From IMG/VR virus record IMGVR_UViG_2547132252_000008: a stretch of 7,335 nucleotides of DNA; one strand, written 5' to 3'. The stretch comes from a virus (lineage: Duplodnaviria; Heunggongvirae; Uroviricota; Caudoviricetes). This document shows, piece after piece, positions 1-6,931 of the stretch (its first letter is position 1; every line of letters begins with the position of its first letter). Below the pieces are notes generated by a model, which saw only the letters and a list, made by a program, of their open reading frames with translations, was not told the origin of the DNA and did not search any database. The position numbers and the translations under genes were made by a program.

Positions 1-414
1 ATTGTGCCGCGACTGGCCGGGGCCGGAAAGGGCGGACTGCAGATTGTGCTGGGGGCGGCAGCCATCGTGGGCTCTTTCTTCACGGCCGGGGCATCAATGG
101 CGTTATGGGGTTCAGCCCTGGCAGCCGGTGGTTTTTCTGCCACCACGATGCTGTTTTCACTTGGAGCCAGCATGATTCTGGGCGGTGTGGCCCAGATGCT
201 GGCCCCGAAGGCAAAAACACCGGATTACCGCGCAACGGATAACGGCAGACAGAACACGTACTTTTCCTCGCTGGATAACATGATTGCCCAGGGGAACCCG
301 ATGCCGGTGCCTTACGGGGAAATGCTGGTTGGCTCCCGCCGTATATCCCAGGACATCAGCACCCGTGATGAAGGTGGGGGCGGAACGGTCGTGGTTGTCG
401 GGCGACAGGGATAA
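1..414 (+). CDS. Tail assembly protein I-like, C-terminal fragment (5' end outside the window or deleted). It is a diverged paralogue of the I gene at 1873-2550.
   Basis: Frame 1 is open from the window edge to TAA at 412-414. The translation (IVPRLAGAGKGGLQIVLGAAAIVGSFFTAG...GEMLVGSRRISQDISTRDEGG...) aligns along its length with the C-terminal ~137 aa of the I product at 1873-2550. By eye the nucleotide identity is roughly 85-90%, with mostly synonymous or conservative changes, which argues for a functional gene from a different lambdoid lineage rather than a decayed copy. Confidence 0.75.
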   Translation: MVPRLAGAGKGGLQIVLGAAAIVGSFFTAGASMALWGSALAAGGFSATTMLFSLGASMILGGVAQMLAPKAKTPDYRATDNGRQNTYFSSLDNMIAQGNPMPVPYGEMLVGSRRISQDISTRDEGGGGTVVVVGRQG

Positions 415-426
415 AACATAAAAAAA

Positions 427-453
427 TCCCGCAGTGATCGCGGAGCTGCGGGA
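427..453. other. Conserved stem-loop downstream of the I-like fragment (stem TCCCGCAG / CTGCGGGA, 11-nt loop), preceded by an A-tract.
   Basis: Perfect 8-bp inverted repeat at 427-434 and 446-453. The same stem recurs at 2562-2588 with a different loop. On the + strand there is no T-tract after it, but on the - strand it is followed by TTTTTTTATGTTTT. Confidence 0.4.
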
Positions 454-468
454 CAGACAAATGATCGT

Positions 469-503
469 ATAACTTACGTATAATGTATGCTATACGAAGT
501 TAT
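469..503. other. loxP-like site-specific recombination site (Cre/tyrosine-recombinase target), carrying a 1-nt insertion in the left arm.
   Basis: The sequence is ATAACTT[A]CGTATA-ATGTATGC-TATACGAAGTTAT. The right arm (491-503) and the 8-bp spacer (483-490) are identical to canonical P1 loxP in its reverse-complement orientation. The left arm matches all 13 positions but has one extra A at 476. Two 13-bp inverted arms around an 8-bp asymmetric spacer that also match loxP are very unlikely to occur by chance. Confidence 0.7.
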
Positions 504-527
504 TACGATAGAGCAGGTGGTGAACTG

Positions 528-1226
528 ATGCAGAATATTCATGAAGAAAGCCTGAACGAGTCGGTTAAGTCAGAGCAGTCACCGCGGGTGGTGCTCTGGG
601 AAATCGACCTGACGGTGCAGGGCGGTGAGCGGTATTTTTTCTGCAATGAGCTGAATGAAAAAAGGGAGCCGGTGACCTGGCAGGGGCGGCAATATCAGGC
701 GTACCCGATTGAGGGCAGTGGCTTTGAGATGAACGGAAAGGGCAGCAGTGCCCGCCCGTCGCTGACGGTGTCCAATCTGTTCGGTCTTGTCACCGGGATG
801 GCGGAGGATTTGCAGAGCCTGGTGGGTGCCACGGTGGTCCGCCGCCGGGTGTATGCGCGTTTTCTGGATGCGGTGAACTTTGTGGCAGGCAATCCGGAGG
901 CCGACCCGGAGCAGGAGCTGAGCGACCGCTGGGTGGTGGAGCAGATGTCAGAGCTGACGGCCATGACAGCCTCGTTTGTGCTGGCAACACCGACGGAGAC
1001 GGACGGAGCGCTGTTTCCCGGTCGCATCATGCTGGCGAACACCTGTATGTGGGATTACCGGGGAGATGAATGCGGTTATCACGGTCCTGCGGTGGCGGAT
1101 GAGTTCGACAACCCCACCACGGATATCCGGAAGGACAGATGCAGTAAATGCATGCGCGGGTGTGAGATGCGCGGCATGGTGGCTAATTTCGGCGGTTTCC
1201 TTTCCATTAACAAACTTTCGCAGTAA
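528..1226 (+). CDS. L: Tail tip protein L (lambda gpL family), 232 aa.
   Basis: The ORF starts MQNIHEESLNE...VVLWEIDLT..GGERYFFCNE.NEK.EPVTWQGRQYQ and ends ...GNFGGFLSINKLSQ, matching lambda gpL as I recall it and at the same length. It has the C-terminal Cys cluster (CMWDYRGDECGYHG...CSKCMRGC) that fits the Fe-S-binding region of gpL. ATG 528 is preceded by AGGTGGTG and overlaps an upstream-frame stop (TGATG). The ORF-track start at 483 lies inside the lox spacer and has no ribosome-binding site. Confidence 0.9.
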   Translation: MQNIHEESLNESVKSEQSPRVVLWEIDLTVQGGERYFFCNELNEKREPVTWQGRQYQAYPIEGSGFEMNGKGSSARPSLTVSNLFGLVTGMAEDLQSLVGATVVRRRVYARFLDAVNFVAGNPEADPEQELSDRWVVEQMSELTAMTASFVLATPTETDGALFPGRIMLANTCMWDYRGDECGYHGPAVADEFDNPTTDIRKDRCSKCMRGCEMRGMVANFGGFLSINKLSQ

Positions 1227-1231
1227 ATCCA

Positions 1232-1975
1232 ATGACACAGACTGAATCAGCGATTCTGGCGCATGCCCGGCGGTGTGTGCCTGCGGAGTCGTGCGGCTTC
1301 GTGGTGAGAACGCCGGAGGGGGAGTGGTATATCCCTTGTGTGAATATTTCTGCAGAGCCGGAGGCGTATTTTCGTATTGCACCGGAAGACTGGCTGCGGG
1401 CAGAGATGCAGGGGGAGATTGTGGCACTGGTCCACAGTCATCCCGGTGGGCTGCCCTGGCTGAGCGAGGCTGACCGGCGGCTGCAGATAAAAAGCGCACT
1501 GCCCTGGTGGCTGGTCTGCCGGGGTGACATTCATAAATTCCGCTGTGTGCCACATCTGACAGGACGGCGCTTTGAGCACGGGGTGACGGACTGTTACACG
1601 CTGTTCCGGGATGCTTATCATCTGGCGGGGACTGAAATGCCGGATTTTGAGCGTGAGGATGACTGGTGGCGCAACGGTCAGAACCTTTACCTGGACAATA
1701 TGGCGGTCACCGGCTTTTACCGGGTGCCCCTGTCCTCTGCACAGGCGGGCGATATCCTGCTGTGCTGCTTTGGCGCATCGGTGGCCAATCATGCCGCCAT
1801 ATACTGCGGCAACGGTGAACTGCTTCACCATCTGCCTGAACAACTGAGTAAACGGGAGAGGTATTCCGAAAAATGGCAACGACGAACGCATTCTGTCTGG
1901 CGTCACCGCCACTGGCACGCATCTGCCTTCACGGGGATTTGCAACGATTTGGCCGCCGCCTCAGCCTGTACGTGA
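1232..1975 (+). CDS. K: Tail tip assembly protein K (lambda gpK family) with an MPN/JAMM domain and an NlpC/P60-type domain.
   Basis: 247-aa ORF directly after L. It carries a complete JAMM motif, HSHPGGLPWLSEAD (HxHx7Sx2D), followed by a Cys/His region (DCYTLF...NHAAIY) typical of NlpC/P60 peptidases. The 3' end overlaps I by 103 nt in another frame, as in lambda. The true start could be an internal codon; lambda K is annotated shorter. Confidence 0.85.
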   Translation: MTQTESAILAHARRCVPAESCGFVVRTPEGEWYIPCVNISAEPEAYFRIAPEDWLRAEMQGEIVALVHSHPGGLPWLSEADRRLQIKSALPWWLVCRGDIHKFRCVPHLTGRRFEHGVTDCYTLFRDAYHLAGTEMPDFEREDDWWRNGQNLYLDNMAVTGFYRVPLSSAQAGDILLCCFGASVANHAAIYCGNGELLHHLPEQLSKRERYSEKWQRRTHSVWRHRHWHASAFTGICNDLAAASACT

Positions 1976-2550
1976 ACACGGCAGCGGAAGCCATCCGTGC
2001 CCTGTCGCTGCAGATGCCGGGATTCCGCCGTCAGATGAACGAAGGCTGGTACCAGATACGTATTCGCGGTGAGGACACGGCACCGGAGGCGGTGTACGCC
2101 CGTCTTCACGAACCTCTGGGTGAGGGGGCGGTCATCCATATTGTGCCGCGACTGGCCGGAGCCGGAAAGGGCGGACTGCAGATTGTGCTGGGGGCAGCAG
2201 CCATCGTGGGCTCTTTCTTCACCGCCGGCGCAACGATGGCGTTGTGGGGCGCAGCCCTGAGTGCCGGAGGGCTGACTGCCACCACGATGCTGTTCTCACT
2301 GGGTGCCAGCATGATACTGGGCGGTGTGGCCCAGATGCTGGCACCGAAGGCAAAAACACCGGAGTACAGGGCGACGGATAACGGTAAACAGAACACGTAT
2401 TTTTCGTCACTGGATAACATGATTGCCCAGGGGAACCCGATGCCGGTGCCTTATGGTGAAATGCTGGTTGGTTCACGACGGATATCCCAGGACATCAGCA
2501 CCCGTGATGAGGGCGGAGACGGGAAAGTGGTGGTTATCGGGCGGGGATGA
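1873..2550 (+). CDS. I: Tail assembly protein I (lambda gpI family), 225 aa.
   Basis: ATG 1873 is preceded by GGAGAGG. Its length is close to lambda gpI (223 aa as I recall). It has a Gly/Ala-rich hydrophobic core (GAAAIVGSFFTAGATMALWGAALSAGG...) and a conserved C-terminus (PMPVPYGEMLVGSRRISQDISTRDEGG). Its position between K and J matches lambda synteny. Confidence 0.9.
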   Translation: MATTNAFCLASPPLARICLHGDLQRFGRRLSLYVNTAAEAIRALSLQMPGFRRQMNEGWYQIRIRGEDTAPEAVYARLHEPLGEGAVIHIVPRLAGAGKGGLQIVLGAAAIVGSFFTAGATMALWGAALSAGGLTATTMLFSLGASMILGGVAQMLAPKAKTPEYRATDNGKQNTYFSSLDNMIAQGNPMPVPYGEMLVGSRRISQDISTRDEGGDGKVVVIGRG

Positions 2551-2790: not shown

Positions 2791-5700
2791 GTGGGTAAAG
2801 GGGGCGGCAAGGGGCACACGCCGGTAGAGGCAAAGGACAATCTTAAGTCCACGCAGATGATGAGCGTGATTGACGCCATTGGTGAAGGGCCGATTGAAGG
2901 TCCGGTGAAGGGGCTGCAGAGTATTCTGGTGAACAAAACCCCACTGACGGACACGGACGGCAATCCCGTGATACACGGTGTGACCGCGGTCTGGCGCGCC
3001 GGGGAGCAGGAGCAGACACCGCCGGAAGGTTTTGAGTCATCCGGCTCTGAAACCGCACTGGGCGTGGAAGTGACGAAGGCAAAGCCGGTGACGCGCACCA
3101 TTACGTCCGCGAACATTGACCGCCTGCGGGTTACCTTCGGGGTGCAGTCACTGGTGCAGACCACCTCACAGGGTGACCGTAACCCGGCATCCGTCCGCCT
3201 GCTGATTCAGCTGCAGCGTAACGGTAACTGGGTGACGGAAAAGGATGTCACCATTAACGGCAAGACCACCTCACAGTTCCTCGCTTCGGTGATTCTGGAT
3301 AATCTGCCTCCCCGTCCCTTTAACATCCGGATGGTCCGGGAGACGGCGGACAGCACCACGGACCAGCTGCAGAACAGAACGCTGTGGTCGTCATACACCG
3401 AAATCATCGATGTGAAACAGTGCTACCCGAACACGGCGATTGTGGGGCTGCAGGTGGATGCGGAGCAGTTTGGCGGTCAGCAGATGACGGTGAACTACCA
3501 TATCCGCGGTCGCATCATCCAGGTACCGTCAAACTATGACCCGGAAAAACGCACGTACAGCGGCATCTGGGACGGCAGCCTGAAACCGGCATACAGCAAC
3601 AACCCGGCCTGGTGCCTGTGGGACATGCTGACTCACCCGCGCTACGGCATGGGAAAACGCCTGGGGGCCGCGGATGTTGACAAGTGGGCGCTGTATGCCA
3701 TCGGGCAGTACTGCGACCAGACGGTCCCGGATGGTTTCGGGGGCACAGAGCCGCGGATGACCTTTAATGCGTACCTGTCACAACAGCGTAAGGCGTGGGA
3801 CGTTCTCAGTGATTTCTGCTCGGCGATGCGCTGTATGCCGGTATGGAACGGCCAGACGCTGACGTTCGTTCAGGACCGCCCGTCGGATGTGGTGTGGCCG
3901 TACACCAACTGCGATGTGGTGGTGGATGATAACGGCGTGGGGTTTCGCTACAGCTTCAGCGCCCTGAAGGACCGCCACACGGCGGTGGAGGTGAATTACA
4001 CCGACCCGCAGAACGGCTGGCAGACCTCCACGGAACTGGTGGAAGACCCGGAAGCCATACTGCGCTACGGGCGCAACCTGCTGAAGATGGATGCGTTCGG
4101 CTGCACCAGTCGCGGTCAGGCCCACCGTGCCGGGCTGTGGGTGATAAAGACCGGACTGCTGGAAACGCAGACGGTGGATTTCACGCTCGGGTCTCAGGGG
4201 CTGCGTCACACACCCGGTGACATTATTGAAATCTGTGATAACGACTATGCCGGGACCATGACCGGCGGACGTGTCCTGTCCATCGATGCCGCCAGCCGCA
4301 CCCTGACACTGGACCGTGAGGTGACCCTGCCGGAGACAGGTACACCGACGGTGAACCTGATTAACGGCAGCGGTAAGCCGGTGAGCGTGGCCATCACTGC
4401 ACACCCCGCGCCGGACCGGATACAGGTCAGCACCCTGCCGGATGGCGTGGAGACATACGGTGTATGGGGACTCTCCCTGCCGTCACTGCGTCGTCGCCTG
4501 TTCCGCTGTGTCTCCATCCGGGAAAACACGGACGGCACCTTTGCCATCACGGCGGTGCAGCACGTACCGGAAAAAGAAGCCATTGTGGATAACGGGGCCA
4601 GCTTTGAGCCACTGTCCGGTTCGCTGAACAGCGTCATCCCGCCGGCTGTGCAGCACCTGACGGTGGAGGTGAGCGCGGCTGACGGTCAGTATCTGGCACA
4701 GGCGAAATGGGACACGCCGCGGGTGGTGAAGGGCGTGCGCTTCAGTCTGCGCCTGACCAGTGGTAAGGGAACGGATGCCAGACTGGTGACCACCGCCATC
4801 ACCGCAGACACGGAGCACCGTTTCAGCGGCCTGCCGCTCGGGGAATACACCCTGACGGTGCGGGCGATAAACAGCTATGGCCAGCAGGGTGAACCTGCCA
4901 CCACCACCTTCCGGATTGCCGCACCGGCAGCACCGTCGCGGATTGAGCTGACGCCGGGCTATTTTCAGATAACCGCCACGCCGCATCTTGCCGTTTATGA
5001 CCCGACGGTACAGTTTGAGTTCTGGTTCTCGGAAAAGCGGATTGCGGATATCAGGCAGGTTGAAACCGCAGCCCGCTATCTTGGCTCGGCGCTGTACTGG
5101 ATAGCTGCCAGTATCAATATCAAACCGGGCCATGATTATTATTTTTATATCCGCAGTGTGAATACTGTTGGCAAATCGGCATTCGTGGAGGCTGTCGGTC
5201 GGGCGAGCGATGATGCGGAAGGTTACCTGGATTTTTTCAAAGGAGAAATCGGGAAAACACATCTGGCCCAGGAGCTGTGGACGCAGATTGATAACGGTCA
5301 GCTTGCGCCGGACCTGGCTGAAATCAGGACGTCCATTACGAATGTCAGCAATGAAATCACGCAGACCGTCAATAAAAAACTGGAAAATCAGAGTGCGGCA
5401 ATCCAGCAGATACAGAAAGTTCAGGTTGATACAAATAATAACCTGAACAGCATGTGGGCCGTGAAACTGCAGCAGATGCAGGACGGACGCCTTTATATTG
5501 CGGGTATCGGTGCCGGTATTGAGAATACGCCAGCAGGAATGCAGAGTCAGGTGCTGCTGGCGGCAGACAGGATTGCGATGATTAATCCTGCGAATGGCAA
5601 CACAAAGCCGATGTTTGTTGGTCAGGGCGATCAGATATTTATGAATGAAGTGTTCCTGAAATATCTGACGGCTCCCACCATTACCAGCGGCGGTAATCCT

Positions 5701-6264
5701 CCGGCATTTTCCCTGACACCGGACGGGCGGCTGACGGCGAAAAATGCCGATATCAGCGGTAACGTGAATGCGAACTCCGGGACGCTCAACAACGTCACGA
5801 TTAACGAGAACTGTCGGGTTCTGGGAAAATTGTCCGCGAACCAGATTGAAGGCGATCTCGTTAAAACAGTGGGCAAAGCTTTCCCCCGGGACTCCCGTGC
5901 ACCGGAGCGGTGGCCATCAGGAACCATTACCGTCAGGGTTTATGACGATCAGCCGTTTGACCGGCAGATTGTTATTCCGGCGGTGGCATTCAGCGGCGCT
6001 AAACATGAGAAAGAGCATACTGATATTTACTCCTCATGCCGTCTGATAGTGCGGAAAAACGGTGCTGAAATTTATAACCGTACCGCGCTGGATAATACGC
6101 TGATTTACAGTGGTGTTATTGATATGCCTGCCGGTCACGGTCACATGACACTGGAGTTTTCGGTGTCAGCATGGCTGGTAAATAACTGGTATCCCACAGC
6201 AAGTATCAGCGATTTGCTGGTTGTGGTGATGAAGAAAGCCACTGCAGGCATCACGATTAGCTGA
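2791..6264 (+). CDS. J: Tail tip host-specificity / central fibre protein J (lambda gpJ family), about 1157 aa.
   Basis: A 3.5-kb ORF. From GTG 2791 the N-terminus reads [22 protein letters not shown], matching the lambda gpJ N-terminus as I recall it, and is preceded by GGAGAGGGGG. The TTG at 2740 used by the ORF track lies inside the terminator stem and is unlikely to be the start. The gene sits between I and lom. Confidence 0.9.
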
Positions 6265-6331: not shown

Positions 6332-6931
6332 ATGCGTAAATTATGTGCTGTTATTTTGTCCGCAGTAGTCTGGCAGGTCGCCGCTGCTACGCCAGCGAGT
6401 GCAGCAGAACATCAGTCCACGCTGAGCGCGGGGTATCTCCATGCCTCGACGAACGTTCCCGGTAGTGATGATCTGAACGGGATTAACGTGAAATACCGTT
6501 ATGAGTTTATGGACGCGCTGGGGCTGATTACGTCCTTCAGTTATGCCAATGCTGAGGATGAGCAAAAAACGCGCTACAGCGATACCCGCTGGCATGAAGA
6601 TTCCGTGCGTAACCGCTGGTTCAGCGTGATGGCGGGGCCGTCTGTACGCGTGAATGAATGGTTCAGCGCGTATGCGATGGCGGGTGTGGCTTACAGCCGT
6701 GTGTCGACTTTCTACGGGGATTATCTCCGCGTAACTGACAACAAGGGGAAAACGCACGATGTGCTGACCGGAAGTGATGACGGTCGCCACAGCAACACGT
6801 CTCTGGCGTGGGGAGCTGGCGTGCAGTTTAACCCGACCGAATCCGTGGCCATTGATATTGCTTATGAAGGCTCCGGCAGTGGCGACTGGCGCACTGACGG
6901 TTTCATCGTGGGTGTCGGTTATAAATTCTGA
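6332..6931 (+). CDS. lom: Lom-like outer-membrane beta-barrel protein (Ail/Lom/PagC/OmpX family), 199 aa.
   Basis: N-terminal signal peptide (MRKLCAVILSAVVWQVAAATPASA-AE). The C-terminal third (AWGAGVQFNPTESVAIDIAYEGSGSGDWRTDGFIVGVGYKF) closely matches lambda Lom as I recall it and ends in a terminal Phe, as outer-membrane barrels typically do. GAGAGG lies 5 nt before the ATG. Its position between J and stf matches lambda. Confidence 0.9.
   Translation: MRKLCAVILSAVVWQVAAATPASAAEHQSTLSAGYLHASTNVPGSDDLNGINVKYRYEFMDALGLITSFSYANAEDEQKTRYSDTRWHEDSVRNRWFSVMAGPSVRVNEWFSAYAMAGVAYSRVSTFYGDYLRVTDNKGKTHDVLTGSDDGRHSNTSLAWGAGVQFNPTESVAIDIAYEGSGSGDWRTDGFIVGVGYKF

Follow-up and report, generated by a model that had tools for sequence, protein, structure and literature searches.

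Gene content and extent of the insert

The window, by which we mean the whole 7,335-nt stretch of DNA analysed, carries part of a lambdoid tail operon in which genes L, K, I, J and lom follow one another and end in a fragment of a tail fibre gene (Table 1). Ahead of gene L lies a partial "tail assembly protein" CDS and, between the two, a 35-nt sequence (469-503, ATAACTTACGTATAATGTATGCTATACGAAGTTAT) that an earlier note had described as loxP with exact spacer and right arm and one A inserted at 476. Global alignment with the 34-nt loxP confirmed this description, since all 34 positions are matched and the inserted A is the only addition; the spacer is the wild-type ATGTATGC. An ungapped search of the window for loxP, exact or with up to 3 mismatches, returned no match because of the indel at 476, and gapped alignment is needed to detect the site. 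In a shuffled-sequence control no match was obtained in 200 shuffles, even at 3 mismatches, and chance cannot account for the 34-nt match.

The element was also said to lie at the breakpoint between two tail-module homologies, and this was borne out: native homology on the left stops at 464 and on the right starts at 504/505, and the site breaks the otherwise universal H-M-L gene order. It follows that the foreign insert runs from 465 to about 507. The coordinates first proposed for the site therefore hold for the loxP core, but the complete non-native segment, framed by TCGT at 465-468 and TACG at 504-507, had been missed. At the flanks the native sequences are ...AATGA|AGAT... on the left and ...TTGC|ACGATAG... 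on the right, so that five bases outside the lox core are non-native (TCGT at 465-468 and T504). The ACG at 505-507 fits the insert as well as the genome, which makes the right-hand boundary ambiguous by 3 nt. The gene calls contained no cre-like ORF in the window, in agreement with the earlier note, and neither cre nor any other recombinase gene was found in the window or across a 20.7-kb stretch of the scaffold. It was also observed that an ATG within the lox spacer opens an ORF (483-1226) that adds a spurious 15-codon N-terminal extension (483-527) to gene L, whose true start is at 528.

Table 1. Positions of genes and sequence features in the 7,335-nt window
Feature	Position	Strand	Basis
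3' end of tail assembly gene I (CDS fragment 4-414) with the 50 nt that follow it, interpreted as a misjoined segment	1-464	+	Alignment with E32511
Paired-end linker of Roche 454 GS FLX Titanium, used for Cre/lox circularisation: TCGTATAACTTCGTATAATGTATGCTATACGAAGTTATTACG plus the extra A (very probable assignment)	465-507	none	Match to published linker
Left loxP arm, 14 nt with the extra A	469-482		Global alignment
Inserted A (TT[A]CG)	476	none	Global alignment
loxP spacer, exact, wild-type	483-490
Right loxP arm, exact	491-503
Last ~20 nt of gene M and start of gene L, interpreted as the proximal end of a mate-pair fragment	505-856	+	Identity to A-type prophage
Minor tail protein L, genuine gene	528-1226	+	Gene call, PF05100
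Tail protein K (JAB/NlpC-P60 peptidase)	1232-1975	+	Gene call
Tail assembly protein I, "B-type" (Sp15/VT1-Sakai-like), the genuine I of this prophage	1972-2550	+	Gene call and comparison
Tail tip/host specificity protein J	2791-6264	+	Gene call
Lom outer membrane protein	6332-6931	+	Gene call
Tail fibre gene fragment, reaching the downstream 20-N gap (contig end)	6996-7335	+	Gene call

Identity of the insert

Comparison of 465-507 with the 42-nt Roche 454 GS FLX Titanium paired-end linker (TCGT-loxP-TACG) matched all 42 positions in order with one base inserted. [quoted passage not shown] Since TCGT and T504 are native at neither flank, they lend specific support to the linker over and above the lox core. 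The agreement of ACG at 505-507 with both linker and genome is a coincidence of roughly 1-in-64 and was counted against an artefact. A second lox site, which had been proposed for the search, was found neither in the window, where no other lox arm occurs at up to 2 edits, nor in the 20.7-kb scaffold stretch, where no further copy of the linker occurs at up to 4 edits. Taken with the flanks, the assembly and the recurrence described below, it is almost certain that 465-507 is an untrimmed synthetic Cre/lox linker of a 454 Titanium paired-end library left in a draft Escherichia coli assembly. The loxP string is present in the record, yet it is almost certainly no real feature of phage or bacterium; the linker would mark a chimeric join and be part of neither genome.

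Origin and geometry of the flanks

The reference used for both flanks was the "A-type" lambdoid prophage ("prophage A") of the O157:H7 strain E32511, a strain different from the source of the window, and this difference was likewise counted against an artefact. The left flank (1-464) is 99.8% identical to E32511 2618471-2618935; against the I gene that the window itself carries (2140-2600), identity falls to about 84-90%. The sole difference from prophage A in these 464 nt is a run of GGG at 449-451, 15 nt from the linker, where E32511 has GGGG; this difference in the G run is consistent with a homopolymer undercall at low coverage. The partial CDS at 4-414 is very probably misplaced in this contig. 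The right flank is 100% identical to prophage A over 352 nt (505-856, L002 7361 onward), with the first mismatch at 857, and all 25 sites that distinguish A from B in three bins spanning 505-804 agree with A.

Both flanks map to the same strand of prophage A, where the left one stops at L002 9465 and the right one begins at L002 7361-7364, a span of 2.10 kb. The order in the window is circularly permuted: the distal end comes first, then the linker, then the proximal end. As both flanks are 99.8-100% identical to prophage A, they point to one A-type source, as one fragment of about 2.1 kb would give, and this span would fit the nominal 3-kb library class.

Further downstream (857-1900), the L-K region changes repeatedly from prophage-A-like to Sp15/VT1-Sakai-like (B) sequence and back. 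No finished genome matches 505-2000 at more than 98.5%, and the K protein of the window was found in one contig only among about 15 billion proteins. The L-K alternation may represent a collapsed-paralogue consensus instead of a real mosaic.

Assembly context and error profile

The window is identical to L007 8770-16104 and lies in scaffold GL896790.1 of the draft assembly GCA_000215165.1. Runs of 20 N flank it on both sides (L007 8750-8769 and 16105-16124), so that it represents one complete contig. Between the linker and the nearer contig end there are 464 nt, roughly the length of one pyrosequencing read. The A-type and B-type I genes first differ about 20 nt downstream of position 1, and it is there that the repeat graph of an assembler would break. 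Beyond the upstream gap the tape-measure gene H is cut short; where a finished genome has about 1.15 kb comprising the 3' end of H and the whole of M, the scaffold has the gap and a 507-nt chimera. The downstream 20-N gap cuts the tail fibre gene.

The upstream contig (L007 1-8749) is nearest to prophages of O111:H8 and O145:H28 STEC, not O157. Against the finished strain 2013C-4081 it shows eight 1-nt indels, seven of which are changes in homopolymer length (draft positions 1290, 5656, 5681, 6113, 6122, 7601 and 8725), the remaining one being a spurious T[C]G insertion. These indels fragment the portal, protease-capsid, major-tail and tape-measure genes, and their pattern fits the errors of pyrosequencing. 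From this profile and from the linker itself, we infer that GCA_000215165.1 was probably produced on the 454 platform with a lox-linker paired-end library.

Occurrence in other genomes and records

In 5,426 finished E. coli genomes, no locus covers at least 80% of window 380-600, and the 35-mer has no exact match in IMG/VR. Nor was the site seen in the 283 phage records that share the tail cluster: their top matches align in at least two pieces that skip the site, and VT1-Sakai, the one phage record inspected individually, has no lox at its M/L junction. The possibility that the sequence might be a conserved natural element of unmanipulated lambdoid phages was accordingly not upheld, as it was not seen at this junction in the phage records and is absent there from the finished E. 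coli genomes.

The exact 42-mer is found in 121 copies in 94 stretches (L008-L101) of whole-genome-shotgun draft records from unrelated phyla, including Paracaedibacter, Legionella, Gemmata, Leptospira, Kitasatospora, Streptococcus, Paenibacillus and Xenorhabdus. For 109 of these copies the distance to a contig end or N gap is below 600 nt, a count in which the ends of the 8-kb loci retrieved are not always contig ends. An identical 42-mer spread across phyla and clustered at contig ends marks a technical contaminant, not biology. Dozens of linker copies were observed in Candidatus Paracaedibacter symbiosus PRA9 and in Legionella tunisiensis LegM, and in Litoribacter populi the linker forms tandem arrays with a spacing of about 129 nt. 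The Nonomuraea gerenzanensis record NZ_LT559118.1, labelled complete, holds 8 copies of TCGT-loxP-TACG. At one of them (9789165-9789230, L004) the flanks are near-duplicates of one another (…GCCGTGGGCGCCGCCGCGCTGAGCGGCGGGG…), which suggests a linker-mediated misassembly there too.

loxP was also observed in the context GCGGCCGCATCGAAT-loxP-TAGCGATGAGCTCGG in Rahnella aquatilis pMEM40-2 (CP036489.1, L003, 23921-23966) and in an Alicyclobacillus fastidiosus plasmid (NZ_CP104070.1). These lox-bearing "plasmids" are 40-49 kb in size with an IncFIA replicon and ParB, and the context of their loxP resembles a BAC/fosmid vector backbone. Both records may be cloning-vector or fosmid contamination.

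Alternative explanations

An engineering scar left in vivo by Cre, through excision of a marker or a deletion or duplication between tail modules and with a mutant LE-like lox as its remnant, would account for an artificial and near-perfect loxP at the breakpoint of two tail-gene homologies, and cre would be absent as after curing of a Cre plasmid. The frame around the lox core, however, is that of the 454 linker and not of a scar with cassette priming sites, and no remnant of a cassette is present. The topology also disagrees: a deletion would leave upstream-lox-downstream, whereas the order observed runs from downstream to upstream over 2.1 kb. Only a tandem L-K-I duplication fits this order, and what lies upstream is a scaffold gap that falls within the truncated tape-measure gene. 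Additionally, the site is near a contig end, the identical 42-mer is scattered through unrelated draft genomes, and the left arm is without substitutions of the lox71/lox66 type. Because of the flank topology, the linker frame, the place at a contig end and the missing cassette remnant, a scar of this kind was rejected, and we regard it as very unlikely. The recombinase or engineering scar proposed in the earlier note thus survives in part, as the loxP is artificial and the join a product of Cre, but the recombination would belong to the test tube and not to the cell, and the topology of a deletion is contradicted. It is more doubtful still that the source STEC strain truly has a lox site in its tail operon, as a laboratory-made or escaped Cre/lox rearrangement (a tandem L-K-I duplication with a lox at the joint) whose flanks would equal the 454 linker by coincidence.

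A further alternative is that a cloning vector with a lox site (BAC, fosmid or P1 vector) contaminated the assembly and was built into the contig. In its favour, loxP stands in a vector-like context in the Rahnella and Alicyclobacillus records. Here, however, only 39-43 nt are non-native with no backbone beside them, and the flanks equal the 454 linker and differ from the vector context (GCATCGAAT-loxP-TAGCGATG). Such an origin was rejected on these two points and is extremely improbable. The idea with the least credit, a chance close to nil, is a natural lox-like target of a phage tyrosine recombinase conserved in lambdoid tail regions, which the earlier note had also raised. P1-like phage-plasmids do have a natural loxP beside a tyrosine recombinase gene, but their native flanks differ (CTTAAT-loxP-TAGGTC), there is no recombinase within 20 kb of the present site, and a universal gene order is interrupted by it. 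A natural target was rejected on the lack of a recombinase within that distance and on the absence of the site from related prophages, and it was not seen in the related phage records either; the searches of finished genomes and IMG/VR reported above speak against it as well.

Proposed origin of the misjoin

In the 454 paired-end protocol, sheared genomic fragments are given lox-bearing adaptors and circularised in vitro by Cre, so that the two ends of a fragment become joined through a single loxP flanked by TCGT and TACG; the circles are sheared again and read across the junction. For the linker at 465-507, the source fragment would be a piece of about 2.1 kb that begins at the M/L junction of an A-type lambdoid prophage and reaches 50 nt beyond its gene I. 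One or a few reads with a one-base error in the linker may have escaped recognition and trimming, and the assembler would have taken them as ordinary sequence, gluing the 3' end of I (1-464) ahead of the M/L junction (505 onward). Scaffolding would then have placed the chimeric contig in a paralogous prophage, at the yehV/btsS site. If the join is such an artefact, the true continuation 3' of 1-464 would be the I-J intergenic sequence (...AATGAAGATCAATG...) and that leftward of 505 would be gene M (...TTTCAGTTGCACGATAGAGC...). The misjoined stretch (464 + 43 + at least 350 nt) exceeds one Titanium read, which speaks against the artefact to the extent that ordinary shotgun reads must have extended the chimeric read both ways. 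Since the site would lie outside the real genome, no recombination would take place there in the cell.

The additional A at 476 is most likely a sequencing error in the form of a 0-to-1 overcall in an A flow, or else an error of oligo synthesis, which agrees with one of the two readings that the earlier note had offered for it. A check of the flow order showed that a false-positive A flow in the T-A-C-G cycle could yield the extra base whichever strand was read, and the T[C]G insertion in the neighbouring contig is comparable. The inserted base probably accounts for the failure of the trimming software to recognise the linker.

Consequences for the use of the record

The importance of the locus is one of data hygiene only. 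Bases 1-507 are to be treated as a misjoin, with about 1.15 kb of real sequence missing from the scaffold, and it would be wrong to read recombination, engineering or an exchange of tail modules into this point. Because the linker is common in public drafts and reaches even one "complete" genome, a screen for TCGT-loxP-TACG with 1-2 errors allowed is a cheap filter, and genome scans that go without it would keep reporting "loxP sites".

Comparison with known systems

In LE/RE mutant lox sites such as lox71 and lox66, which are used for irreversible integration, 5 nt of one arm are substituted at its outer end. These variants share with the present site one deviant arm and a wild-type spacer, but the deviation here is a single-base insertion inside the arm with nothing pointing to design, and the proposal of an LE-type mutant was for this reason abandoned.

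The native Cre target, P1 loxP, has the identical 8-nt spacer and 13-nt arms, because the linker was designed from loxP. The site differs from it in length (35 vs 34 nt), in the absence of an adjacent cre, in its flanks and in its setting, a lambdoid tail operon in a draft assembly. When plasmid records were searched at high sensitivity, the loxP of P1-type plasmids shared only the core with it. The native module, an exact 34-nt loxP with a neighbouring cre in a P1-like replicon, is therefore not what lies in the window.

The closest counterpart is the 454 Titanium linker, which the insert matches at all 42 positions and which, as expected from circularisation, stands between the two ends of one fragment of about 2.1 kb in circularised order. 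The insert lies no more than one read length from a contig end in a draft scaffold with errors of the pyrosequencing type, and identical contaminants are found in many other draft genomes; the inserted A at 476 is what distinguishes the present copy from the published linker.
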